A stretch of 64,000 nucleotides of DNA, from NCBI GenBank assembly GCA_041166405.1, contig JBEEFV010000093.1, positions 21,252 through 85,251 on the forward strand, written 5' to 3'. Origin of the DNA: Actinomycetota bacterium. Its GTDB lineage: Bacteria > Actinomycetota > Acidimicrobiia > Acidimicrobiales > JACCXE01. The position numbers and the translations under genes are program-made. Below, in pieces: positions 9,379 to 36,942 of the stretch (position 1 is its first letter; every line of letters begins with the position of its first letter). The notes under the pieces were generated by a model. The model did not search any database, was not told where the DNA came from, and saw only the letters and a program-made list of their open reading frames with translations.

Positions 9379-10002
9379 GTGTGCGCGGTGCGAAATCTCA
9401 GGCTGGTGTGCGCGCTCGGGCTTTTGCTGGGTGTGGCGTGGTTCGCCGTCAATCCGTCGCAGCAAGGCGCGCTCAGCGCACCCTGCCCCACCACGACGAC
9501 TCGGGTACCGCGGACGACGACATCGCACCCGCCGCGGACGACCACATCGCACCCGCCGCGTACGACGACAACCACCACGCCTTGCGACCAACCGACCACC
9601 ACCGTCGCCGGTCAGACCACGACCACGCCCGTTCCGCCGACGACGAGCAGCACGCTCCCGGCGACGACTACAACGACGACGCATCAGGCCACGACGACGA
9701 CTTCGAGTTCGAACACCACGTCCACCTCGACGTCCACGTCCACCACATCGACGACGGGCCTTCCGGCGACAACCACCTCATCGAGTTCGTCGAGCCTCCC
9801 CACCACCACCACGACCACGGGTTCGGCGGCTGGTGCGACGACGTCGACCATCGGCGCCCGGAACCTGCCGATCACGGGTTCGAACACGGGCGGGCAAGTG
9901 CGTCCGGGCCTGCTGTTGCTCAGCTTCGGTGCCGCGCTCGTCGCCACGGCGGCGGTGCGCTTCGAGCGCAAGCGGCGCGGCAACCACTTCCTGAAGCACT
10001 GA
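9379..10002 (+). CDS. Thr/Ser-rich cell-surface protein with LPXTG-type sorting signal
   Basis: N-terminal signal-like LRLVCALGLLLGVAWFAV, about 140 aa of T/S/P-rich low complexity, then LPITG, hydrophobic GLLLLSFGAALVATAAV and basic RFERKRRG. Confidence 0.75.
   Translation: MCAVRNLRLVCALGLLLGVAWFAVNPSQQGALSAPCPTTTTRVPRTTTSHPPRTTTSHPPRTTTTTTPCDQPTTTVAGQTTTTPVPPTTSSTLPATTTTTTHQATTTTSSSNTTSTSTSTSTTSTTGLPATTTSSSSSSLPTTTTTTGSAAGATTSTIGARNLPITGSNTGGQVRPGLLLLSFGAALVATAAVRFERKRRGNHFLKH
9508..9570 (+). repeat. 24-nt in-frame tandem repeat (about 2.5 copies) inside the Thr-rich gene
   Basis: Unit 9508-9531 (ccgcggacgacgacatcgcacccg) and unit 9532-9555 differ at one base. A third partial copy follows. 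The unit encodes PRTTTSHP. Confidence 0.8.
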
Positions 10003-23468: not shown

Positions 23469-23551
23469 CCCAAATGCTCGCACAAGGGTGTTGGTCCGAA
23501 GTTGAGCGGCCGTTGATCAACTCTGTGGCTCGGCAGCCGAAAGGTTTAGAT

Positions 23552-26500
23552 ATGGCCGAAGACGCGTTCGCGCGACCGCTTCTCGGCGGGCGATATCGCT
23601 GCGACCGTTTGATCAAGTCGGGCAGCGGCGTCGAAACGTTCGCGGGCGTCGACATCGAGTCGCGCTCGCCGATCATCGTCAAGCGCGTCGCCGCTGCCAG
23701 CCGGATGGATCCCGCCTGGGTGCGCCTCGCGCACGAAGCGGAAGTGCTGCGCCGCCTCGAGTCGCGGTCGTTCCGCGCGCCCGTCACGACCGGGCGGGAG
23801 GACGGCTTCTTCTACCTCGTGCGCCCCTCGGTCGACGGGATCAGTCTCGCCGAGCGACTCAACCGTGGCCCGTTGAGCATCGCGTCCGCTCTCCGCGTCG
23901 GAACGAACCTGCTCGACGCGTTGCAGCAGGCGCACGACAACCACGTGCTGCACCGCGACGTGAAGCCGGCGAACGTGATCGTCGACGAGTCCGAGTCCGT
24001 GGAGCGCGTGGTGCTGATCGACTTCGGGTTCGCGCGCAGTCCGACGCTCGACAGCGACGTGCGCGATCAGCGCGTCGGCACCGCGCGCTACCTCGCGCCG
24101 GAAGCCGCGGGCTTACTAGAACGCGAAGTCGACGAGCGATCCGACTTGTACGCGTTCGGCGTCGTGCTGTTCGAATGCATCGCCGGCCGCGCTCCCTTCG
24201 AGGCGAGCGACGTCGGACAACTTCTCCGCATGCACCTCAACGCGCCGCCGCCGGCGCTGCGAGAGCTTCGTCCCGACGTGCCGCGCGCCCTCGACGCCGT
24301 GGTGCAACGCCTGCTGCGCAAGGACCCTGCCGAGCGCTACCAGTCCGCCAGTGCGGCGCTCGCCGACCTGCGCGCCATCGAGGAAGCCATCGCGCGCGGC
24401 AACGCCGACCCGGCGATCGTCGTCGGTGCGCACGACAACCGTCCGGTGCTGACCGAGCCGGCCTTCGTGGGGCGCAGTGCCGAACTCGCGGTGCTGGCGC
24501 ACAGCGTGGACGTCGCCGCGGACGGTGAGGGTGGTCTCGTCCTCCTCGAAGCCGAGTCGGGCGGTGGCAAGTCGCGCCTGCTCGACGAGCTCGCGCTGCG
24601 GATCGGCGCCGACGCGTGGGTGTTGCGCGGCCAGGGCGTCGACCAGGGCGCGCAGCGTCCCTTCCAAGTACTCGAAGGTCTCGTCCAGGCGATCAACAAG
24701 GCCGCAGCCGACGATGCGAACGTTCTGGAGGTGCTGCGCGCCGGCGTCGGCGACCGTGCCGAAGCGGTCGTGGCCGCGCTGCCCGATCTCGCCGAGACGT
24801 TCAACATCGACGCCCACGTCAACCTCGGTCCGGAGGCGTACGGCGAGACGCGCAGCATCGCGGCGATCAACGTCCTGTTGCACTCGCTCGGCGAAACCGG
24901 CCGGCCGGCGATTGTCTTGCTCGACGACTGCCAGTGGGCCGACGCGTCCACGTTGAAGTTGTTGGCCGAGTGGCCGACCGAGTCTCGGTGCCGCACGGTC
25001 GTGATCGCGGCGTTTCGCACAGAGGAAGTGCCGGCCTCTCACGCGTTGCGCAAGGGTCGGCCGATCGCCCACGTCTCGTTGACGGCGTTCGGTACCGCCG
25101 ACGTCGAGAGCCTGGCGGAGTCGATGGCGGGCACGCTGCCCGCCGCGGCTATCGAGACGGTTGCCGCGCTGTCCGAAGGCAGTCCGTTCATGGCGGCGGC
25201 GGTGTTGCGCGGTCTCGTCGAAACGGGCGCGCTGGTGCACGAGGCGCGCGGCTGGCGCGTCGACGCCGCGCGATTGGCCGACGTGCAGACGTCGCGCCGC
25301 GCCGCGCTGTTCCTCGTACGCCGCCTCGAACTGTTGGGCCCGACGACGCTCGAGCTGTTGACGGTCGGCGCGATCCTCGGCAAGGAATTCGACGCCGATC
25401 TCGCCGCGGAGTTGTGTGGCCAGGACGCGGACACGGTCGCCGTCGGCCTGAGCGAAGCGGCGCGGCGCCGCATCGTGTGGCCGGAGGAGGCAACCGGACG
25501 CGTCCGGTTCCTGCACGACAAGTTGCGCGAGGCATTGCTCAGCCGCCTCAGCGCCGACGAGCGCGCCACGCTGCACCTCCGCGCCGCGACGCGCATCGAA
25601 GCGCTCGACGCCGGTCGCACGTTCGAGCTGGCGTACCACTTCGACGCGGCGCGTCGCGACGACTTGGCGCTGCCGTACGCGCTGCGAGCCGCCGAGTCCG
25701 CGCGCGCCCAGCACTCGCTCGACGTCGCGCTGCGCAATTACCGCATCGCCGAAGCGGCGCTGCGCGCCAACGGTTCTGACGCCGATCGCGCCGCCGTCGC
25801 CGAAGCCCTCGGCGACGTGCTGATGTTGCAGGGCACGTACGACGAGGCGGCGGCACAGCTGACCTCCGCGCTCGACCACGCGTCCACGGTCGATCGTCGT
25901 GCCGCCCTCATGGGCAAGCTCGGTGAGGTCGCCTTCAAGAAGGGCGATCAACGACTGGCGCGCACCCACCTCGAGTCTGCCGTGCACGAACTGCGTGGTC
26001 GCCTCCCGCGCAATTCGGTGACGCTGCTGTGCGCACTCGTGTTCGAAGTGGTGGTGCAGGCGGCGCATTCGATCGCCCCGCGCCTTTTCGTCGGTCGCCG
26101 CAAGCTCGAGGGCGCCGAGCGCGAGTTCCTCGTCCTGCGTCTCTACAGCCGCTTGGCGTACGTGTACTGGTTCAGCGCGGGGAAAGTCGCCTGCGCGTGG
26201 GCGCACCTCCGCGAGATGAACATGGCCGAGCGCTATCCGCCGACCGCCGAGCTCGCGCAGGCGTACTCCGAGCACGCGCCCGTCATGACGATGGCGCCGT
26301 GGTTCAAGCGCGGCCTGGACTACGTCGAGCGATCGCTTCGTATCCGCACCGACCTCGGCGACCTGTGGGGCCAGGGCCAATCGTTGAACTTCTACGGCGT
26401 CACGCTTTACGCCGCGTCACGCCATCGTGAAGCGATCGAGAAGCTCGACGAGGCGTACCGACTGCTCGACCAGACCGGCGATCGATGGGAGGCGAACGTC

Positions 26501-29314
26501 GCGCTGTGGAACAAGGCGTACGCGCATTACCGCCTCGGTGAGCTGGACGAGGCCGTCCGCATCGGGCGCAGGTTGCACGAGAGCGCGACCGCCATGGGCG
26601 ACATGACCTCCGCCGGTCTCGGCTTGAGCGCGTGGTCGCGGGCGTCCGGTGGTCGAGTACCCGCAGAGTTCATCCGCACGCAACTCGAGTACGGACTGGC
26701 TGACGCGCAGACGGACGCCGAGGTCAACGTCGCCGACGGCATCCGCCTCATGAGCGAGGGGGAATACGGGGCCGCAGTGATGGTGCTCGAGGAAGCCGCC
26801 AGCATCGTGCGTTCCGCGGGGTTGCGTCAGGAGTACGTCGCGCCCGTACAGCCGTGGCTGGCGACGGCACTGCGCGAACTCGCGCAGTCGAAAGCGCCAT
26901 GGGACTTGGCTGAGCGCGGCGCCGCAATACGGCGGGGTAGGCGCGCGGTACGCAGCGCGCTCTTCGTCGCCTTCTGCTTCCGCAACAACTGGCCGCACGC
27001 ACTGCGAGAGGCCGCCCTGTACGCGGCGATCGTTGGTCGCGCGCGCAAGGCACAGCGTTTGATGCGCAAGAGCCTCGGCGCCGCGGTCGCGCAGGACGCG
27101 CAGTACGAGCGGCTTCTCACGCTGCGGGCCTGGGCATCGCTCGGCCTCGACGTCCAGGACACGCCGGCGGCTGTCGTGCTCGAGTCGATCCAAGCCGAGC
27201 TGGCGTTGCTCATGCCCGAGACGACGACCGTCGAAGCCGCCGACGCCGGCCCGGCGCCGTCGCTGTCGCTCATCGACCGGTTCGCGGCGCTTCTCGCCGC
27301 CGGCCGTGAAATCGCCGCGGCGCCAACAGCCGAAGGTGTTGCCGCTGCTGTCGAACACGCGTCGGTGGCGTTGCTGCGTGGCGAACGGTGCGAGGTGTTC
27401 GCGGTGACCGAGGACCATCCACGGCCGCAGAGTGTGAGCCGGACGATCGTGCGGCGCGCCATCGAAGAGCGGTCCGTGGTCGTGTGGTCAGCGTTGAACG
27501 GTGACACGCTCGACAGTTCCGACAGCATGGAACTTTCGGGCGTTCGATCCGCGCTGTGCGCGCCGATCGTGCGTGACGGCGAGGTCGTCGCGCTCGTGTA
27601 CGTCAGCCACGCGGGTTTCGAGGATCTCTTCGGTGAAGACGAGGTCCGCATTGCCGAGTTCATCGCGACGCTCGCCGGCGCGGCAATGGAACACGTCGCC
27701 AACACCGAAGCGGAGTTGCGGCAAATGCTCGACGACCTCACCGTCACGTCGTCGCTGCTCGAGGCCACTCTCGACGCGACGATCGACGGGATCCTCGTCG
27801 TCGACCGTTCCGGCCGAATGACGAGCTACAACCAACGCTTCGGTGAGATGTGGGGCATCCCGCCCGACGTGCTCGCCAGCCGCGACGACAAGGAAGCCAT
27901 CCGCTACGTGCTCGACTGCGTCGCCGATCCCGCGGCGTTCGTGGCCAAGATCGAGGAGTTGTACGCGTCGCCCGAGGCCGAGAGCTACGACATCATCGAG
28001 TTCAAGGACGGCCGCGTGTTCGAACGCGGTTCGAAGCCCCAACGCATCGGCGACGACACTGTTGGCCGCGTGTGGAGCTTCCGCGAGGTGACCGAACGCG
28101 TTCGCACCGAGCAGGCACTCGCCGTTGCCCGCGACAAGGCGATGGAGGCGAGCCGTCTCAAGTCGGAATTCGTCGCCACGACGAGCCACGAGATTCGCAC
28201 GCCGATGAACGGTGTCATCGGCCTCACGGGTCTTTTACTGGAGACGAGCCTCGACGACGTGCAGCGTGAGTACGCGGAGGGCGTTCGCATGTCGGCCGAA
28301 GCGCTGCTCGGCGTGATCAACGACATCCTCGACTTCTCGAAGATCGAAGCCGGCAAGCTCGAACTCGAGAACATCGACTTCGAATTGCCGCTCGCTCTCG
28401 ACGACGTGGCGGGTCTCGTCGCGCGTGGCGCCGCCGCGAAACATCTCGACCTCGGGTGGGACTGCGACCGCGACGTGCCGACCGGCGTTCGCGGTGACGT
28501 CGGTCGACTGCGTCAGATCCTGCTGAACCTCGTGGCGAATGCCGTCAAGTTCACCGAGCGCGGCGGCGTGCGCCTGCACGTCAGCCGTACGCGCACCCTC
28601 GACGACGGCCGATCGATGCTGCGGTTCGAAGTGATCGACACCGGCGTCGGCCTCCGCCCGCAGGACAGCGCGCGCTTGTTCGAGCCGTTCTCGCAGGCCG
28701 ACGCGTCGACGACCCGGAAGTTCGGGGGCACCGGTCTCGGGCTCGCGATTTGCGCCCGGCTCGCCGAGGCGATGGGCGGCACGATCGGAGTCGAGAGCGA
28801 GTTCGGCGTCGGCTCCACGTTCTGGGTCGAGTTGCCGTTCACGCTCGTCGACTTGGCGGCGCGCGACGCCGCGGTTCCGGCCGCGCCCGTGCCGTTGCAC
28901 CCCGTCGATCCGCCGCGCGCCAGCGCGCGGGTCCTCGTCGCCGAAGACAACGCCATCAACCAATTGGTGGCGAAGGAGATGATCCGTCGGCTCGGCTACG
29001 AGTGCGACGTGGTCGCCAACGGCGCCGAGGCGCTGGAAGCGCTGCGTTTGCGCAGGTACGCGGCAGTGTTGATGGACTGCTACATGCCGGAAATGGACGG
29101 GTTCGCGGCGACGCGCGAATTGCGCGAGCGCGAACGCGCCGCCGGGGTCACCCCCACGCCGGTGATCGCCATGACGGCGTTGGCGATGGCAGAGGACCGC
29201 GAGCGCTGCACCGAATCCGGCATGGACGACTACGTCTCGAAACCCATCAATCTCACCGCGCTCGGTTCGACGCTGGAACGGTGGGCCTCGGGCCGGGCCG
29301 CCGCCACCGCGTAG
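23552..29314 (+). CDS. Multidomain signalling protein: Ser/Thr kinase, AAA/STAND NTPase, helical repeats, GAF, PAS, HisKA/HATPase_c, receiver
   Basis: ATG at 23552. HRDVKPANV (23951), DFGFAR, APE. Walker A ESGGGKSRL (about 24561), LLDDCQWAD. GAF about 27.4-27.7 kb, PAS about 27.75-28.1 kb. H-box SHEIRTPMNGV (about 28.18 kb), GGTGLGLAI. REC: VLVAEDN...LMDCYMPEMDG...SKP. Confidence 0.9.
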   Translation: MAEDAFARPLLGGRYRCDRLIKSGSGVETFAGVDIESRSPIIVKRVAAASRMDPAWVRLAHEAEVLRRLESRSFRAPVTTGREDGFFYLVRPSVDGISLAERLNRGPLSIASALRVGTNLLDALQQAHDNHVLHRDVKPANVIVDESESVERVVLIDFGFARSPTLDSDVRDQRVGTARYLAPEAAGLLEREVDERSDLYAFGVVLFECIAGRAPFEASDVGQLLRMHLNAPPPALRELRPDVPRALDAVVQRLLRKDPAERYQSASAALADLRAIEEAIARGNADPAIVVGAHDNRPVLTEPAFVGRSAELAVLAHSVDVAADGEGGLVLLEAESGGGKSRLLDELALRIGADAWVLRGQGVDQGAQRPFQVLEGLVQAINKAAADDANVLEVLRAGVGDRAEAVVAALPDLAETFNIDAHVNLGPEAYGETRSIAAINVLLHSLGETGRPAIVLLDDCQWADASTLKLLAEWPTESRCRTVVIAAFRTEEVPASHALRKGRPIAHVSLTAFGTADVESLAESMAGTLPAAAIETVAALSEGSPFMAAAVLRGLVETGALVHEARGWRVDAARLADVQTSRRAALFLVRRLELLGPTTLELLTVGAILGKEFDADLAAELCGQDADTVAVGLSEAARRRIVWPEEATGRVRFLHDKLREALLSRLSADERATLHLRAATRIEALDAGRTFELAYHFDAARRDDLALPYALRAAESARAQHSLDVALRNYRIAEAALRANGSDADRAAVAEALGDVLMLQGTYDEAAAQLTSALDHASTVDRRAALMGKLGEVAFKKGDQRLARTHLESAVHELRGRLPRNSVTLLCALVFEVVVQAAHSIAPRLFVGRRKLEGAEREFLVLRLYSRLAYVYWFSAGKVACAWAHLREMNMAERYPPTAELAQAYSEHAPVMTMAPWFKRGLDYVERSLRIRTDLGDLWGQGQSLNFYGVTLYAASRHREAIEKLDEAYRLLDQTGDRWEANVALWNKAYAHYRLGELDEAVRIGRRLHESATAMGDMTSAGLGLSAWSRASGGRVPAEFIRTQLEYGLADAQTDAEVNVADGIRLMSEGEYGAAVMVLEEAASIVRSAGLRQEYVAPVQPWLATALRELAQSKAPWDLAERGAAIRRGRRAVRSALFVAFCFRNNWPHALREAALYAAIVGRARKAQRLMRKSLGAAVAQDAQYERLLTLRAWASLGLDVQDTPAAVVLESIQAELALLMPETTTVEAADAGPAPSLSLIDRFAALLAAGREIAAAPTAEGVAAAVEHASVALLRGERCEVFAVTEDHPRPQSVSRTIVRRAIEERSVVVWSALNGDTLDSSDSMELSGVRSALCAPIVRDGEVVALVYVSHAGFEDLFGEDEVRIAEFIATLAGAAMEHVANTEAELRQMLDDLTVTSSLLEATLDATIDGILVVDRSGRMTSYNQRFGEMWGIPPDVLASRDDKEAIRYVLDCVADPAAFVAKIEELYASPEAESYDIIEFKDGRVFERGSKPQRIGDDTVGRVWSFREVTERVRTEQALAVARDKAMEASRLKSEFVATTSHEIRTPMNGVIGLTGLLLETSLDDVQREYAEGVRMSAEALLGVINDILDFSKIEAGKLELENIDFELPLALDDVAGLVARGAAAKHLDLGWDCDRDVPTGVRGDVGRLRQILLNLVANAVKFTERGGVRLHVSRTRTLDDGRSMLRFEVIDTGVGLRPQDSARLFEPFSQADASTTRKFGGTGLGLAICARLAEAMGGTIGVESEFGVGSTFWVELPFTLVDLAARDAAVPAAPVPLHPVDPPRASARVLVAEDNAINQLVAKEMIRRLGYECDVVANGAEALEALRLRRYAAVLMDCYMPEMDGFAATRELRERERAAGVTPTPVIAMTALAMAEDRERCTESGMDDYVSKPINLTALGSTLERWASGRAAATA

Positions 29315-29364: not shown

Positions 29365-30702
29365 ATGAAGGCTGTCGCTGAACCCCTTGAGGGCAACAAG
29401 GTCAAGCTGTCCGTCGAGGTCGACGAGGCCGAATTCGAAAAAGCCGTTGACGCTGCGTTCCGCCGCTTGGCGCGCGAAGTCAAAGTCGACGGCTTCCGTC
29501 CGGGCAAAGCGCCGCGCCGCGTGCTCGAAGCCAAGCTCGGCGCCGGCGTGGCGCGCGAAGAGGCGTTGCGCGAAGCACTGCCCGGTTACTACGAGAATGC
29601 GCTACGCGAAACCGAAACCGACGCGATAGCGCAGCCCGAAATCGACGTCACTGCGGGGCAAGAGACCGGGCCGCTCACGTTCGACGCCGTCGTCGAGATC
29701 CGCCCCGTCATCACGGTGCCCGGCTACGACACGCTGAAGGTCGTCGTCCCGAGCCCCGAGCCATCCGAAGAAGACGTCAACGCACAGATCGATCGCCTGC
29801 GCAACCAGGGAGCCGAACTGAACGACGTCGATCGCGCCGCGCGCAAGGGCGACGCCGTCGTGCTCGACATCCACGGCACGCAGAACGACGAATCCGTGCC
29901 CGGTCTCGACGCCACCGATCTCACGTACGAAGTCGGCAGCGGGACGCTCGTCGACGGGCTCGACGATGCGATCACCGGCGCCAAGGCGGGCGACGCCGCC
30001 GCGTTCTCCACCGAAGTTCCCGGCCACGAAGGTGCCGTCGACTTCAAGGCGCTCGTGAAGGGCGTGAAGGAAAAGGTGCTGCCCGAAGTCACCGACGAGT
30101 GGGCGAGCGAAGTCTCCGAGTTCGACACGGTCGAAGAGTTGCGCGCTGATCTCGTCAAGCGGATGACCGCTGTTCGACTCGCCAACGCGCAGATGGCGTT
30201 GCGCTCCGGCACGGCGCAAGCGCTGGCGGATCTCGTCGTCGACGTGATGCCCGACGCGTTGATCGACGGCGAAGTGTCGCGTCGCATCGACGACCTCGCG
30301 CATCGTCTGTCGCATCAGGGCGCGACGCTGCAGCAGTGGCTCGAGGCCACGGGTCAGTCGCCCGAGGAGTTCATCGCCGGCCACCGCGAGGACGCCGCGT
30401 CGAGCGTGAAGGTCGACCTGGCGCTGCGCGCCGTCGTCGTCGCCGAGGGCATCGACATCTCCGACGACGAACTCGACGAAGAACTCACGAAGGTCGCCGA
30501 AGACGCAGGCGAGAAGCCTGCCAAGTTGCGCAAGCAACTCGAGACCAACGGCGTGCTGCCGCTGGTCAAGCTCGACCTCGCGAAAGCCAAAGCACTCCAG
30601 TGGCTGATCGACCATGCTGAGGTGGTCGACGAAGAAGGCAATCCCGTAGACGTCGCGGCGCTCACAGCGGCACCCGACCAGGAAGAGGAGCAACAGGACT
30701 GA
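29365..30702 (+). CDS. tig: Trigger factor
   Basis: ATG at 29365 ([19 protein letters not shown]). [12 protein letters not shown] motif. Positioned upstream of clpP-clpX. 445 aa. Confidence 0.95.
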
Positions 30703-31331
30703 TGGAGCCGATCTACAACTACCTGGTACCGACGGTTGTCGAGAGTTCGAGCCGAGGCGAGCGCGCCTACGACCTGTACTCGCGCATGCTCAAAGAGCAC
30801 GTGATCTTCCTGGGCACGCCGATCGACGACACGATTTCCAACCTCGTCTGCGCGCAGATGTTGTTCTTGGAGTCGGAGAACGCCGATAAGCCGATCTCGC
30901 TCTACATCAACTCACCGGGCGGTGAAATCACGGCGCTGCTGGCGATTTACGACACCATGCGGTACGTCGGCAACGAGATCCACACGTTCTGTTACGGCCA
31001 GGCGGCTTCGGCGGCCGCCGTGCTGCTTGCTGGAGGCACCAAGGGTCGCCGCTATGCGCTGCCCCACGCCCGTATCCTGATGCATCAGCCCTACGGCGGC
31101 GCCGCCGGACAGGCCACCGACATCGAGATCCAGGCCAAGGAGATCCTCCGGATGAAGGACTTGCTCAACCAGATGCTGGCGGAAGACACCGGTCAGCCGT
31201 TTGAGCGCGTGTCAAAGGACACCGAGCGCGACTTCATCATGAGTGCAGAAGAAGCGCAGGCCTACGGCGTTATCGATGAAGTGATTTCCACCCGTCTTCC
31301 GGTGACCGAGCACGCGCTCGGCGCGGCATAG
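30702..31331 (+). CDS. clpP: ATP-dependent Clp protease proteolytic subunit (paralogue 2)
   Basis: [25 protein letters not shown] (Ser), RILMHQPYG (His). TGATG overlap with tig. Confidence 0.95.
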
Positions 31332-31340
31332 GAGTAACCA

Positions 31341-32609
31341 GTGGCTCGTCTCGGCGACGGAAGCGATCTCGTCAAGTGCAGCTTCTGCGGCAAAACGCAG
31401 AAGCAGGTCAAGAAGTTGATCGCCGGCCCCGGTGTGTACATCTGCGATGAGTGCATCGAGTTGTGCAACGACATCATCGAAGAGGACCTGGCGGAAGCGA
31501 GCGAGCTCAAGTTCGAAGAGCTGCCCAAGCCCCGCGAGATCTTCTCGTTCCTCGACGACTACGTCGTCGGTCAGGAACACGCCAAGAAAATCCTGTCGGT
31601 CGCGGTCTACAACCACTACAAGCGCGTGCAGGCGGGCGCACACGACCCCGAGGTCGAACTCGGCAAGTCGAACATCCTGCTGATCGGGCCGACGGGCTGC
31701 GGCAAGACGTATCTCGCGCAGACGCTGGCGCGCATGCTGAACGTGCCGTTCGCCATCGCCGACGCCACGGCGCTGACCGAGGCCGGCTACGTCGGCGAAG
31801 ACGTCGAGAACATCCTCCTGAAGCTCATCCAGGCTGCCGACTACGACGTCAAGAAGGCCGAGACCGGCATCATCTACATCGACGAGATCGACAAGATCGC
31901 CCGCAAGAGCGAGAACCCGTCGATCACTCGGGACGTGTCGGGCGAAGGCGTGCAGCAGGCGTTGCTCAAGATCCTCGAGGGCACGACCGCTTCGGTACCG
32001 CCGCAGGGCGGGCGCAAGCACCCGCACCAAGAGTTCATCCAGATCGACACGGGCAACATCCTGTTCATTTGCGGCGGCGCGTTCGCCGGTATGGACAAGA
32101 TCATCGAGAGCCGCATCGGCAAGACCGGCATTGGCTTCGGTGCCACCATCAACCGCCGCTCGAACGACGTCGGCGAGCTGATGCTGCAGGTGCAGCCCGA
32201 AGACCTGCTCAAGTTCGGGCTCATCCCCGAGTTCGTCGGCCGTCTCCCCGTCATCGGCGCGGTGTCCAACCTCGACAAGGACGCCCTGGTGCGCATCCTC
32301 GTCGAGCCGAAGAACGCCGTGGTCAAGCAGTACCAGCGCATGTTCGAGCTCGACGGCGTGCAACTCGAGATGACCGACGACGCGCTCGAGGCCGTTTCGG
32401 AACAGGCGCTGCTGCGCGGCACCGGTGCCCGCGGTCTGCGCGCGATCCTCGAAGAGGTGCTGCTCGACGTCATGTACGACGTGCCGAGCCGCACCGACGT
32501 CGGCAAGTGCGTCGTCGACCGCTCCGTCGTGCTCGACAAGGTCGCGCCGACGCTCACCCCGCGGGCGGACACACCCCCCACGGACAAGCCCCGCCGCGCC
32601 GCTTCCTGA
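31341..32609 (+). CDS. clpX: ATP-dependent Clp protease ATP-binding subunit ClpX
   Basis: Zinc finger CSFCGK...CDECIELC, Walker [21 protein letters not shown]. 422 aa. Confidence 0.97.
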
Positions 32610-32620
32610 CGCACCAACCC

Positions 32621-32670
32621 AAAGTTGTGTTCTGTCGCACGTGAATCGTGTGCCACAGAACACAAGTTTC
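32621..32670. terminator. Long imperfect hairpin downstream of clpX
   Basis: aaagttgtgttctgtcg ... ccacagaacacaagttt: 17-nt arms with 2 mismatches and an inner gcacg/cgtg(t)gc pairing. AT-rich relative to its surroundings. Confidence 0.5.
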
Positions 32671-32695
32671 TTCCCCGCCTAGGCTCCGCGGCGTT

Positions 32696-34069
32696 ATGAC
32701 GTTGACCCGGTTGTTGGTCGCGCCTGCGGTGCTGGCTGGGGAGCCCGACGCGGTGGCGCTGCGCGCTGCTGGCGTTGCCGCGGAGCGCCGCTTCGACACC
32801 GAGGGTGAGACCGAGCTGATCGTCGGCACGCTCGAGGGCGACTTGGCGTCGCAACACGCCGTCGAGAGCGAACTGGCGCGCGAGGGGCTCGACCGCACCG
32901 TCATCGGCCGCGACGCGTTCGTCGAACGCGTGCGCGAGACCGAAGCGCGCCACCGCTCCGCGTTGCGCGACGCGCTCACCGACGCCGGCATCCCCGCTGA
33001 CATCGAGCTGGGTCGCACCGCAGACGAGATCGTGTTGCGCGCGGCGCGCATCGCCTTCGTGCGCCTGTACGACGCCGGTCTGCTCGAACACGCCGAACGC
33101 GTCGTCGACATTTGCGCGCGCTGCCAGACGGTCGTCGAACCGAGCGACGCCGCCGCGGTGCCGACCGAAGTCGTCCGCTACACGCTCGCGCTCGACGGAG
33201 TCGAGGTTGCGATTACCGACGCCGAACTGTTGCCCGGTGTGGTGGCGGTCGCGGTGCCCGCCGGACACGCTGCGGCGGGCACGACGGTCCGCGTGCCGCT
33301 CGGCCACGACGTCCCCGTCGTCGCCGACGACGCCACCGACGCGCCGTGGTTCGTCGTCCCGGCGCACGCCGGGCGTGCGCTCGACTTCGCCCGGCAACAC
33401 GGCCTCACACCGCTTCCCGTCCTCGACAGCGACGGCGTGGTCGTGAGCGAAGGCCCGTTGGCCGGACTGGCGCGCTACGCGGCGCGCGCCGCGGCCGCGG
33501 AGTTGCTGCGCGCCGAGGGCGTCGTGCTCGCCGAGCAAGTCGACACCGTCGACGACCTCCGCTGCGGGCGCTGCGCCACGTCGCTCACCCCCGTCCTCGG
33601 CCCGCACTGGTTCCTGCGGACGGCGGACCTCGAGATTGCGGCCGCCGATGCGATCCGCGGCGGCGCCGTCCAGATCGACGACGTGGAAACCCGCGATCGT
33701 TTCGTCGACCGCGCCGAGCGCGCCGATTCTTGGTGCCTATCGCACCAGGTGTGGGCGGGCGATGCGGTGCCGGCGGCGCGCTGCATCGACTGCGGCCAGA
33801 TCGCCGTCACTGCCGAGCCGTCGTCGTCGTGCGGGAAGTGCATGGGCGAACTCGTGCCGACCGAAGACGTGCTCGACGCCAGGTTCATCGCGGCGCTGTG
33901 GCCGCTGGCGCTCGCCGGCTGGCCCGTCGAGGAGCAGCGCGCCGATCGCAGCGTCGTGTTCGCCGGTCCCGATGACGTGACGGGATTCGCTTTGCCCGTC
34001 GCCGCGCTCGGTTTGCGCCTCGCCGGCGCCGTCCCGTACGACGAACTCGTGAGCGTGCACACCGAATGA
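32696..34069 (+). CDS. ValRS-derived degenerate and truncated protein (pseudo-synthetase or relic)
   Basis: Colinear with class Ia ValRS from the HIGH region to just before KMSKS ([50 protein letters not shown]), but the signature residues are replaced. The stop overlaps the folC ATG. Confidence 0.7.
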
Positions 34070-35364
34070 ATTTCGAAGAGGCGGTCGCGTTCCTCGACGA
34101 GCACATCAACATGGAAAAGATGCTGGCGGGGGAGCGCGCGACTGCCCCGACGCTCGAACGGATCCGCGAACTGTTGCGGCTGCTCGGCGATCCCGAGCAG
34201 CAATACCCGATCGTTCACGTGACGGGGACGAACGGCAAGACGTCGACGGCTCGCGCCATCGGACGGTTGCTGATGGCGCACGACCTGTCGGTCGGCACGT
34301 ACACCAGCCCGCACGTCGTGTCGTTGACCGAACGCATCCTGCGCGACGACGAGCCCATCGCGCCCGACGAGTTCGCGTTGCTGATCGCGCAGTTGGCGCG
34401 GCTCGAACCGCTGCTGACGGAACGCGCCACCTGGTTCGAGCTCATAACCGCTGCCGCCTACGCACACTTCGCCGACATCGCCGTGAACGCCGCGGTGATC
34501 GAAGTCGGCCTCGGTGGAACGTGGGACGCCACGAACGCGGCAAACGGCGCCGTCGCCGTCGTCACGTCAGTTGGGCTCGATCACATGGAGTTCCTGGGTG
34601 ACACCCCGGAGGACGTCGCCGCGGAGAAGTCGGGGATCATCAAGGAAGGCGCCGACGTCGTCGTCGGCTACCTCGACGACGGACCGCGCGAAGTGATCGA
34701 CATCGCGGCGCGCGTCAACGGTGCCGCCAGCGTCGTACACGCCGGTGACGAGTTCGCGGTGACGAGCGATCGCGTCGCCATCGGTGGACGGCTGCTGTCG
34801 GTGCGCACGTCGCGGGCGCGATACGACGAGATCTTCATGCCGCTGCACGGCGCGCATCAGTCGGAGAATCTCGCGTGCGCCATCGCGGCGACGGAGGCGT
34901 TCTTCGACCGGCCGCTCAACGAGGAATTGGTGATCGCCGCCGCCGCGGGCCTCACTGCGCCGGGTCGCCTCGAGGTGATCGGGCGCAATCCGCTCGTGAT
35001 CCTCGACGGCACGAAGAACGAGATGGGTGCCGCCGCCGTCAAGGCGGCGCTCGATGAGGAGTGGTCGACGGTGTCCCCGCGCGTGCTGGTGGTCGGACTC
35101 CTGAAAGGCAAAGGCAAGGACCCCAAGGCGCTGCTCGACGCTCTCGGCGCGCGCAGCGCCAAGCTCGTGATCGCGGTACCCGCGCCGTCGCCGCGCGCGA
35201 TGGACGCCGACGAGATCGCAGCCGCCGCCCGTGAACTCGGGGTGCACGCGGAGACGGCGTCGTCGGTCGACGAAGGTCTCGCCCGCGCCAAGTTCGAAGC
35301 CGGCGCCGACGGCCTCGTCCTCGTCGCCGGCTCCCTCTACGTCGCCGGCGCCGCCTCTCACTGA
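34066..35364 (+). CDS. folC: Folylpolyglutamate synthase / dihydrofolate synthase
   Basis: VTGTNGKTSTA P-loop. 432 aa. Conserved position before ndk. Confidence 0.92.
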   Translation: MNFEEAVAFLDEHINMEKMLAGERATAPTLERIRELLRLLGDPEQQYPIVHVTGTNGKTSTARAIGRLLMAHDLSVGTYTSPHVVSLTERILRDDEPIAPDEFALLIAQLARLEPLLTERATWFELITAAAYAHFADIAVNAAVIEVGLGGTWDATNAANGAVAVVTSVGLDHMEFLGDTPEDVAAEKSGIIKEGADVVVGYLDDGPREVIDIAARVNGAASVVHAGDEFAVTSDRVAIGGRLLSVRTSRARYDEIFMPLHGAHQSENLACAIAATEAFFDRPLNEELVIAAAAGLTAPGRLEVIGRNPLVILDGTKNEMGAAAVKAALDEEWSTVSPRVLVVGLLKGKGKDPKALLDALGARSAKLVIAVPAPSPRAMDADEIAAAARELGVHAETASSVDEGLARAKFEAGADGLVLVAGSLYVAGAASH

Positions 35365-35411
35365 CTTTCTGAATCTGATGCTCACGTGGTGTGCATAGAT
35401 GTCAGAAAGTC
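35363..35411. other. AT-rich bulged hairpin between folC and ndk
   Basis: gactttctga (35363-35372) pairs perfectly with tcagaaagtc (35402-35411). The stem extends inward with bulges (atctgatgc / gcatagat). Confidence 0.4.
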
Positions 35412-35440
35412 CGTGACCGGGCATTAGCCTCGCCGCCGCT

Positions 35441-35851
35441 ATGGCAGACCGTACGTTCGTTATTTGTAAGCCCGACGCCGTGGAACGCGGCCTTGCGGGC
35501 GAGATCATCCGCCGATTCGAGAACAAGGGGCTCAAGATCGTCGCCGCCGAGTTGCGCACGATCGACGCCGACACTGCCGGCAAGCACTACGCCGAGCACG
35601 CCGAGAAGCCCTTTTTCGGGGACCTGGTGAGCTTCATCGGCCGTAGTCCGGCGATGTTGCTCGTACTCGAAGGCCCCGAAGACACCTGGAAGGTCGTCCG
35701 CACGATGATGGGCGTCACCAATCCGCGTGACGCGGGGCCCGGGACGATCCGCGGCGACTACGGGATCGAATTGACCGAGAACCTGGTGCACGGCAGCGAC
35801 GGGCCGGAGTCGGCCGCACGCGAGATCGCACTGTTCTTCCCAGCCCTGTAG
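35441..35851 (+). CDS. ndk: Nucleoside diphosphate kinase
   Basis: RTFVICKPDAVERGL, NLVHGSD (active-site His). 136 aa. Confidence 0.97.
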   Translation: MADRTFVICKPDAVERGLAGEIIRRFENKGLKIVAAELRTIDADTAGKHYAEHAEKPFFGDLVSFIGRSPAMLLVLEGPEDTWKVVRTMMGVTNPRDAGPGTIRGDYGIELTENLVHGSDGPESAAREIALFFPAL

Positions 35852-35901
35852 CCTGACGGACTTCCGAGGGGGGACCCCGATCCCTTGCGGAGCCCGTCTA
35901 C

Positions 35902-36942
35902 GTGTCAGAAAGCATCTTTTCCAATCTCCTAGGTCGCGACATGGCCGTCGACCTAGGCACCGCCAACACGCTCGTCTACGTACGCGGGCGCGGCATCGTG
36001 CTCAACGAGCCGTCGGTGGTCGCGGTGAACGTGAAGGACGGGCGACCGCTCGCCGTCGGCACCGAGGCGAAACGGATGATCGGCCGCACGCCGAATCACA
36101 TCCGCGCCATCCGTCCGTTGAAGGACGGCGTCATCGCCGACTTCGACATCTGCGAAAAGATGCTGCGGTACTTCATCCAGAAGGTGCACCAGCGTCGCTT
36201 CTCGCACCCTCGCATGGTCATCTGCGTTCCTTCTGGCATCACCGGCGTCGAGCAGCGCGCCGTGGCCGAGGCGGCCGAGTTCGCCGGCGCCCGCAAGCCC
36301 GTCTACATCATCGAAGAACCGATGGCCGCGGCGATCGGCGCCGGCCTGCCGGTGCACGAGCCCGCCGGCAACATGGTCGTCGACATCGGCGGCGGCACAA
36401 CCGAAGTCGCCGTCATCTCCCTCGGTGGCATCGTCACCGCCGGCTCGATCCGCATCGGCGGCGACGAACTCGACGACTCGATCATCAACTACATCAAGAA
36501 GGAATACTCCGTGGCGCTCGGCGAGCGCACCGCGGAGGAGATCAAGTGCTACTACGGCTCGGCGTGGGCGCTCGAAGAGGAGCACTACTTCGAGATCCGC
36601 GGCCGTGACCTCATCACCGGGCTCCCGAAGCCGGTCATGACGTCGACGGGGGAGATCCGCGAAGCGATCGAAGAGCCGGTCGCCGCCATCGTCGACGCGG
36701 TGAAGGTGACGCTCGACAAGACGCCGCCGGAACTGGCAGCCGACATCATGCAGCGCGGCATCGTCATCACCGGTGGCGGCGCGTTGCTGCACGGGATGGG
36801 CGAGCGCCTCGAACACGAGACGGGAATGCCGATCGTGATCGCGCCGAACCCGCTGCATGCCGTTGCCATCGGCAGCGGCCAGTGCCTCGAGGAGTTCGAA
36901 GTCCTCAAGGGCGTCTTCATCAACTCGAACCCTCCCCACTAG
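35902..36942 (+). CDS. mreB: Rod-shape-determining protein MreB
   Basis: DLGTANTLVYV, VVDIGGGTTEVAV, ITGGGALL. 346 aa. Confidence 0.97.
   Translation: MSESIFSNLLGRDMAVDLGTANTLVYVRGRGIVLNEPSVVAVNVKDGRPLAVGTEAKRMIGRTPNHIRAIRPLKDGVIADFDICEKMLRYFIQKVHQRRFSHPRMVICVPSGITGVEQRAVAEAAEFAGARKPVYIIEEPMAAAIGAGLPVHEPAGNMVVDIGGGTTEVAVISLGGIVTAGSIRIGGDELDDSIINYIKKEYSVALGERTAEEIKCYYGSAWALEEEHYFEIRGRDLITGLPKPVMTSTGEIREAIEEPVAAIVDAVKVTLDKTPPELAADIMQRGIVITGGGALLHGMGERLEHETGMPIVIAPNPLHAVAIGSGQCLEEFEVLKGVFINSNPPH

Follow-up and report, generated by a model that had tools for sequence, protein, structure and literature searches.

The 64,000-nucleotide stretch analyzed here (hereafter the window; contig JBEEFV010000093.1 of the Acidimicrobiales assembly GCA_041166405.1) carries on its forward strand the gene string tig, clpP, clpX, X, folC, ndk, mreB and mreC, in which X denotes an open reading frame (ORF) of 457 amino acids that begins with an ATG at position 32696 and ends with a TGA at 34069. 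The interval from the end of clpX (32609) to the start of folC (34066) measures 1456 bp, and X is the single ORF that fills it. This bears out an earlier annotation of the same stretch (the original prediction), which had held that the gap is too short for a valyl-tRNA synthetase (ValRS) and that a 457-amino-acid ORF occupies the slot of the ValRS gene, valS. In Streptomyces and Mycobacterium, we take the order to be clpX, valS, folC and ndk. A comparison of the clpX–folC interval across the relatives of X (hereafter the family) revealed the order clpP-clpX-X-folC-ndk-mreB at 40 of 42 loci, the remaining two contigs ending beside X. Elsewhere, genuine valS lies in this slot: clpP-clpX-valS is found in Atribacteria-type and other metagenome-assembled genomes (MAGs), and genuine valS is adjacent to folC in Clostridia, Bipolaricaulota and 'Thermotogae' MAGs and in one Actinomycetes MAG. 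Because the same slot holds genuine valS in other phyla, X is the positional orthologue of valS, that is, a descendant of the original gene and not an inserted paralogue.

Both profile and structure comparisons confirmed the proposed homology of X to ValRS. X matched the Pfam family PF00133 (tRNA-synt_1) with an expect value (E) of 3.8e-22 and a score of 79.1 bits against a gathering cut-off of 22.7, and it matched four NCBIfam valS models with E values of 2e-19 to 8e-50 (6e-41 to 8e-50 for the best three). However, the scores to the three best models were 140–170 bits, compared with cut-offs of 612, 704 and 1783 (TIGR00422, NF004349 and NF011492). The ValRS of T. thermophilus (PDB 1gax) was matched with an E value of 4.2e-45, residues 41–432 of X being aligned to residues 76–490. 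PF00133 was the only Pfam match, and neither the anticodon-binding domain (PF08264) nor the coiled coil (PF10458) was found in X; similarly, a tblastn search with the C-terminal half of E. coli ValRS gave no match in the window or in ∼40 family loci. Scans of Pfam and NCBIfam returned no family specific to X. No sister or donor lineage could be named, because the relatives of X are all about equally distant from genuine ValRS, with flat identities of 28–36%. Overall, X is unmistakably derived from ValRS, yet it is no ValRS by any family criterion.

In an alignment with E. coli ValRS (b4258, from NC_000913), X runs from the first Rossmann half through the CP core, the former editing domain CP1 and CP2/CP3 into the second Rossmann half and ends immediately before the KMSKS position, where long-form relatives carry DDPDPR; X is thus colinear with ValRS up to that point, as had been proposed. 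All of the motif replacements listed in the original prediction were reproduced, except that HMGH (residues 49–52 of the E. coli enzyme) pairs with DAVA (residues 18–21 of X), one residue off the PDAV named there. We compared 26 family representatives with 60 genuine ValRS, using E. coli numbering. Pro42, Asn43, His49, Gly51, His52, Asp80, His81, Thr221, Arg223, Thr226, Asp230, Lys277, Thr279 and Asp286 are invariant in the genuine enzymes and replaced across the family, the exception being Asp286, whose equivalent is kept in 7 of the 26 representatives. Equally invariant in the genuine enzymes and replaced family-wide are Arg427, Trp431, His433, Thr475, Trp476, Ser478, Ile511, Arg518 and the KMSKS motif. 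Thus, the pocket for valine and valyl adenylate (Val-AMP), comprising Pro42, Asn43, Asp80, Trp476 and Ile511, is invariant in the 60 genuine ValRS and replaced in the family, and at the editing site Lys277 and Thr279 are each retained in 0 of 26 representatives; some deep-branching members retain the Asp of the PAHD motif. The ATP-binding, valine-pocket and editing-site roles are those that we take these residues to have from the literature on 1gax; the Asp of the TDHAG motif, to which the amino group of Val-AMP binds in ValRS, is Leu in X. Many of the replacements are fixed and specific to the family, among them D80L, G83D (19 of 26), T226L, T279V, W476R (23 of 26) and R518P (20 of 26). Judged from its sequence, X can be ruled out as a protein that carries out aminoacylation, amino-acid activation, editing or anticodon recognition. 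A salt bridge between Asp49 and Arg396 of X was considered as a new feature and rejected, because the two residues do not co-vary.

An AlphaFold2 model of X, built on a 47-sequence family alignment, had a mean predicted local distance difference test score (pLDDT) of 93 and a predicted template modelling score (pTM) of 0.89, with no disordered segment. With this model, Foldseek returned 1gax first (E 1.6e-34, template modelling (TM) score 0.88 over the query), followed by IleRS structures. The model indicates with high confidence that the Rossmann/CP1/zinc fold of X persists, which answers in the affirmative the question raised earlier of whether the Rossmann and CP1 folds survive. All eight cysteines of both ValRS zinc sites are kept in the 47 sequences, Cys140, 293, 363, 366, 379 and 382 being invariant and Cys143 and Cys290 nearly so, and the four retained CxxC pairs predict that X binds zinc. 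X is acidic (isoelectric point 4.6, net charge −34), contains a single Lys and consists to 39% of Gly, Ala, Arg and Pro; the median net charge of the family is −31, whereas the corresponding stretch of genuine ValRS has about −8. Because the net charge of X is about −34, binding of tRNA or mRNA is unlikely. The coordinates of the features of X and of its neighbors are listed in Table 1.

Table 1. Positions in the window of X, its sequence features and the neighboring genes
Feature	Position	Strand	Basis
tig	29365–30702	+	
clpP	30702–31331	+	
clpX, upstream neighbor bounding the slot	31341–32609	+	
TAGGCT, −10-like TANNNT hexamer starting 16 nucleotides before the ATG	32680–32685	+	conservation
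ORF X, 457-amino-acid ValRS-derived non-catalytic protein, short form of the family	32696–34069	+	
Former HIGH position, DAVA (residues 18–21)	32747–32758	+	alignment with E. coli ValRS
LEGDLASQ in place of (T)DHAGIATQ; family-specific G-D-L motif	32831–32854	+	alignment, family comparison
Cys140/Cys143, first CxxC of the CP zinc knuckle, retained	33113–33124	+	
AITDAEL in place of the Thr-rich editing peptide ATTRPET	33209–33229	+	alignment
VVPAHAGRA in place of ITPAHDFND; Lys277, Thr279, Asp283 and Asp286 all replaced in the window protein	33353–33379	+	
Cys290/Cys293, second CxxC of the CP zinc knuckle, retained	33563–33574	+	
Segment replacing WCISRQLWWGHRIP of ValRS; Arg427, Trp431 and His433 lost; dN 0 in close relatives	33731–33772	+	
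CP3 zinc ribbon CIDCGQ...SCGKCMG (Cys363, 366, 379, 382); conservation above genuine ValRS	33782–33841	+	
DVLDARF in place of DVLDTWF; valine-pocket Trp to Arg, nearly fixed (23/26)	33866–33886	+	
folC (Mur_ligase_M/C), downstream, probably co-translated neighbor of X	34066–35364	+	
ATGA, overlap of X stop and folC start	34066–34069	+	kept in the family, also at genuine valS-folC
ndk	35441–35851	+	
mreB	35902–36942	+	

A search of 5.8 billion proteins returned 189 relatives of X, the best 120 of which are clusters at 45–98% identity, and in a library of 50%-identity representatives ∼48 family clusters, down to 35% identity, ranked ahead of the first genuine ValRS (Thermaerobacter, 36%). The family thus comprises at least 120 sequence clusters at 35–98% identity and was found only in Acidimicrobiia-type metagenome genomes; where organism names are given, they read Acidimicrobiales, Acidimicrobiia, Acidimicrobiaceae, Actinomycetota or 'uncultured Actinomycetes'. 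All of the X-carrying genomes are metagenome-assembled, among them a complete chromosome of 4.1 Mb (OY970363.1) and others with contigs measuring 0.7 and 2.3 Mb. X has the same ends in independent assemblies from JGI, ENA, NCBI and Logan, and at least 445 amino acids are kept in all complete family members. Database names of the relatives are either the generic 'class I tRNA ligase family protein' or, in JGI and some NCBI entries, the incorrect 'valyl-tRNA synthetase'.

Family members fall into two length classes. Long forms of ∼565–585 amino acids extend past the former KMSKS loop and stop short of the anticodon-binding domain. In an AlphaFold model of a long form (pLDDT 92), the C-terminal extension is predicted to form an ordered six-helix domain; it has no Pfam match, and the alignment identifies it as a remnant of the post-KMSKS region. 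Short forms, including that of the window, lack the extension, and intermediate lengths of ∼485–510 amino acids are also present. Taking the intermediate-length genes at their listed length, the C-terminus of X has probably been trimmed more than once. At long-form loci (L002, positions 9538–9948; L021; L031–L034; L042), an extra conserved ORF of ∼136 amino acids, rich in Ala and Lys and without a Pfam match, separates clpX from X; the clade of the window lacks this ORF.

Selection on X was assessed by pairwise Nei-Gojobori estimates of the ratio of nonsynonymous to synonymous substitution rates (dN/dS) on orthologous DNA. For X, dN/dS was 0.034 (dS 0.27) in the closest pair, at 98% identity, and 0.10–0.15 (dS 0.7–0.8) in pairs at 83–87% identity. 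The corresponding values were 0.047 and 0.09–0.17 for folC and 0 and 0.025 for clpX, and ndk gave about 0.05 in the closest pair. Eight orthologues with called coordinates contained no stops or frameshifts in X. All segments of X are constrained (dN/dS 0–0.23), and dN was 0 for the WCLSHQ segment in close relatives. Compared with genuine ValRS, constraint has weakened at the former sites of the HIGH, TDHAG, Thr-rich and GxDIxFFW motifs and strengthened in helix 111–125, in CP1 residues 241–270 and in the CP3 zinc ribbon (residues 361–385). Overall, purifying selection acts on X as strongly as on folC, the opposite of the neutral evolution by which the original prediction would have recognized a decaying pseudogene, and because dN/dS is low and constraint has moved to new regions, neutral decay is excluded and the pattern is that of a new, constrained role.

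At two of the family loci, genes or the matches to them are broken up. In L005/L027 (CAVRKD010000004.1), folC and mreB are in fragments and clpX is shortened, with X intact; these fragments are probably uncorrected indel errors, and L005 is one of the eight orthologues used for the selection estimates. In L039 (OY970363.1), the clpX, X and folC matches are fragmented, and X may be affected there too.

Upstream of X, the relatives cannot be aligned over the clpX–X spacer, apart from a TANNNT hexamer whose first base lies 15–16 nucleotides before the start codon. With a conserved Arg codon as the anchor, 23 of 34 family loci had TANNNT within one 8-nucleotide window, whereas its background frequency predicts 0.16. 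We infer that the hexamer is an actinobacterial −10 element and that X may have its own promoter with a very short or absent leader. Scans for E. coli-type sigma-70 promoters and terminators found nothing, and positions 31000–36000 contained no Rfam family or T-box. A longer form of X starting at a GTG at 32648 is mechanically possible but supported neither by the orthologues nor by the conserved upstream hexamer: the GTG sits in a part of the spacer that is unconserved even in a 98%-identical relative, and the ATG at 32696 aligns with the starts of all close orthologues. Also between clpX and X, at 32625–32665, lies a perfect 11-bp inverted repeat, TTGTGTTCTGT-N19-ACAGAACACAA. It is absent from the 98%-identical L023, whose clpX–X spacer is 39 nucleotides long, and we rejected this palindrome as part of the feature because it is not conserved even in that relative.

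At the other end of X, the reading frames of X and folC overlap (ATGA, GTGA or TGATG) or lie at most 18 nucleotides apart at every family locus with a placeable folC start, and most of the remaining junctions likewise read ATGA or GTGA. The stop codon of genuine valS also overlaps or nearly abuts the folC start (ATGA, TTGA or GTGA) in Clostridia, Bipolaricaulota, 'Thermotogae' and Actinomycetes MAGs (loci L045–L053, L059, L071, L075 and L089). The coupling of X to folC is therefore inherited from genuine valS-folC operons. The overlap reported in the original prediction is real and conserved, but in itself it is no sign of a new role, because the same overlap occurs with genuine valS. We know of no explanation for the translational coupling of valS and folC across phyla.

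Because ValRS is universally essential, a second valS at another site in the genome must presumably carry out aminoacylation, in line with the original prediction. With a dead copy at the ancestral locus, the working enzyme would therefore be a displaced or acquired copy. A full-length valS was not found in the window, whose large ORFs contain no aminoacyl-tRNA synthetase (aaRS) domains and whose only ORF of at least 800 amino acids is a kinase fusion, and a ValRS C-terminal domain was not found in ∼40 family loci with 4–10 kb flanks. Candidate searches for the genuine valS returned Thermaerobacter, Streptosporangiaceae-type and Coriobacteriia-type enzymes, and the matches listed from a scan of genome collections included genuine ValRS of other phyla. 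The kinase fusion is a single ORF of 1946 amino acids on the forward strand, directly upstream of tig (23474–29314), with Ser/Thr kinase, AAA_16, TPR, GAF, PAS, HisKA, HATPase_c and receiver domains, that is, a eukaryotic-type kinase fused to a hybrid histidine kinase.

We propose, with a probability of roughly 60%, that X is a pseudo-enzyme that has a function and is kept by selection. At the ancestral valS locus, X has lost the ATP motifs, the valine pocket, the editing residues, the anticodon domain and the coiled coil. According to this proposal, its own promoter would give rise to a near-leaderless mRNA that also carries folC. The role of X would most likely be non-catalytic: like HisZ or the 'prozymes' considered below, it would bind a protein partner and serve as a scaffold or regulatory subunit. 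A partner-binding role is favored because catalysis, editing and anticodon reading are ruled out and RNA binding is unlikely. The likely interface would be formed by the surfaces that have gained constraint, namely the CP3 zinc ribbon, CP1 around residues 241–270 and helix 111–125. FolC, as the putatively co-translated protein, and the genuine ValRS are the obvious candidate partners, and our confidence in any particular partner is lower than that in the pseudo-enzyme reading itself.

Several points weigh against this proposal. The binding role is reached by elimination. The searches of protein collections did not find the genuine valS of the X-carrying genomes. Asp49 and Arg396, although family-specific, do not co-vary, so that a new pocket or salt bridge is not demonstrated. 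Both the adjacency and the coupling to folC are ancestral, so that FolC is not specifically indicated as the partner. Finally, the repeated shortening of the C-terminus, from ∼575 to ∼490 to 457 amino acids, looks like a continuing reduction.

A version of events that gives FolC a definite place is, in our judgment, unlikely: ValRS may have had an old non-catalytic second job tied to FolC, and X may keep only that job. Under this version, a second valS would have taken over charging in Acidimicrobiia, leaving the original gene free to lose catalysis, proofreading and tRNA recognition. If true, X would amount to a naturally occurring separation-of-function allele and would reveal that a universal synthetase moonlights, for example in a complex of the ValRS core with FolC that couples valine or translation status to folate metabolism.

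We ranked as the main rival the idea that X is a translation platform for folC, its product being kept only soluble and harmless while the ORF slowly shrinks. On this view, once the valS function had moved to another site, translation of the upstream ORF would still have been needed to bring ribosomes to folC, because the two genes are coupled in many phyla. The ancestral stop/start overlap, which is kept throughout the family, and the stepwise C-terminal truncations, after each of which the overlap was restored, are what such a platform would leave behind, and no new function has been identified for X. However, a platform explains neither why dN/dS of X is as low as that of FolC, and low in each segment, nor why the zinc ribbon and CP1 241–270 are conserved beyond genuine ValRS and family-specific residues are fixed. 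Moreover, a short leader ORF would suffice for coupling, yet the length of X is held at 445 amino acids or more. We therefore regard this idea as improbable.

Close behind it we place the similarly improbable view that X has acquired a new ligand-binding or catalytic activity, without ATP-dependent adenylation, in a remodelled cleft with an Arg in the former valine pocket and an Asp in the former TDHAG motif. The near-fixation of W476R (23 of 26) and the frequency of G83D (19 of 26), together with the absence of nonsynonymous change from WCLSHQ in close relatives, point in this direction, as does the cleft fold, which the model predicts to be retained; but the regions of the former HIGH, TDHAG and GxDIxFFW motifs are less conserved than in genuine ValRS, Asp49 and Arg396 vary independently, and no nucleotide-binding motif is left.

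That X acts on tRNA, either by trans-editing of mischarged tRNA-Val or as a binder of the acceptor stem or CCA end, appears very unlikely. The CP1 fold is retained, the PAHD Asp survives in some deep-branching members and the Asp286 equivalent in 7 of 26 representatives, but the Thr-rich peptide, Lys277, Thr279 and mostly Asp286 are replaced (all of them in the window protein), X has neither an anticodon domain nor a coiled coil, and the net charge is −30 to −45 with almost no Lys. Finally, of the two options left by the original prediction, a pseudo-enzyme or a gene relic, the former is supported and the latter rejected: a non-functional pseudogene, or an assembly artefact truncating a real valS, would fit a product of half the ValRS length with all signatures gone and a G+C content above that of its neighbors, but is already contradicted, and almost certainly wrong, given that the same ORF with the same ends recurs in the independent assemblies (including the 0.7-, 2.3- and 4.1-Mb contigs), that the frame is intact in each orthologue examined at dN/dS values of 0.03–0.15, with no disruptions in the eight orthologues, and that length, zinc ligands and a confidently predicted fold are kept down to 35% identity. 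The G+C content is 0.71–0.75 within X (32750–33750), compared with 0.61–0.68 in clpX and folC; together with the composition of X, this is consistent with a loss of residue-specific constraint under GC-biased mutation.

The preferred reading of X as a retained pseudo-enzyme matters beyond this locus. The family spans a whole class, the mostly uncultured, soil- and water-dwelling Acidimicrobiia, and it shows, in the way of a natural experiment, what a class Ia synthetase needs for purposes other than catalysis, the zinc ribbon and the CP1 surface being the parts that gain constraint. It also poses a question that can be tested, namely what lies behind the translational coupling of valS and folC in different phyla. 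In addition, the 'valyl-tRNA synthetase' mislabels can distort assessments of pathway completeness and of marker genes in Acidimicrobiia genomes.

Proteins derived from aaRS, such as HisZ, YadB, PoxA, AlaX and LeuRS-I, have repeatedly revealed new biology. X shares with ValRS (EC 6.1.1.9; 1gax, b4258) the Rossmann/CP1/CP2/CP3 architecture, both zinc sites, the slot between clpX and folC and the stop/start overlap, but it has 457 amino acids (∼880 in ValRS) and lacks HIGH, KMSKS, the valine pocket, the editing residues, the anticodon domain and the coiled coil. HisZ, a HisRS paralogue that is the regulatory subunit of the ATP phosphoribosyltransferase HisG, does not aminoacylate and has no anticodon domain. 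It is our working model for X, being derived from an aaRS, non-catalytic and retained, and X likewise combines loss of catalysis with purifying selection. HisZ, however, is of class II, has a known partner and ligand and resides as a paralogue at the his locus; X is of class Ia and lies at the ancestral synthetase locus. In the 'prozymes' of trypanosomatids, which concern AdoMetDC and deoxyhypusine synthase, a dead copy reportedly persists under selection for its binding to, and regulation of, the active enzyme. By analogy, X might act in the same way, but the prozymes are eukaryotic and of unrelated folds, and their partnership is demonstrated, whereas for X it is a hypothesis.

Among the accessory ValRS-like and IleRS-like proteins of Actinomycetes, the Streptomyces P0211 group and SbzA resemble X in that they are class Ia paralogues annotated as 'class I tRNA ligase family protein'. 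Like X, P0211 has lost the editing motifs and has a CP1 sequence resembling that of X; unlike X, it has ∼793 amino acids, retains the anticodon domain as well as HIGH and KMSKS, occurs as an additional copy away from the valS slot and is probably catalytic. Other ValRS-like proteins, Micromonospora P0188 and P0251/P0230, keep the anticodon domain and have a degenerate HIGH or KMSKS, and P0227 (592 amino acids) keeps TTRPE and has lost HIGH and KMSKS. The stand-alone, aaRS-derived editing modules AlaX and YbaK/ProX have a hydrolytic site, whereas X has the CP1 fold with the site replaced.

In full-text literature searches, no paper turned up on a ValRS-like protein or on a truncated or paralogous ValRS, and ValRS is not mentioned in a 2022 review whose tables cover aaRS duplicates and aaRS-like proteins, HisZ among them (PMC9437257). 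According to the same review, Glu-Q-RS (YadB) and PoxA/EpmA consist of a truncated aaRS catalytic core and have no anticodon-binding domain (PMC9437257); they keep their active sites and activate and transfer an amino acid, whereas X has no catalytic residues. LeuRS-I of Sulfolobaceae and LeuRS2 of Halobacteria are class Ia duplicates in which the CP1 editing domain is disrupted and the C-terminal part is acidic; they aminoacylate barely or not at all, and their role is unknown, although they matter for growth (PMC9437257). LeuRS-I is of full length, makes Leu-AMP and binds tRNA-Leu but cannot aminoacylate (PMC9437257); compared with it, X has neither the adenylation motifs nor the tRNA-binding domains. 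Overall, LeuRS-I of Sulfolobaceae and HisZ are the closest described cases, and X is an aaRS-derived non-catalytic protein that is unusual in being the positional orthologue of the synthetase instead of a side copy.

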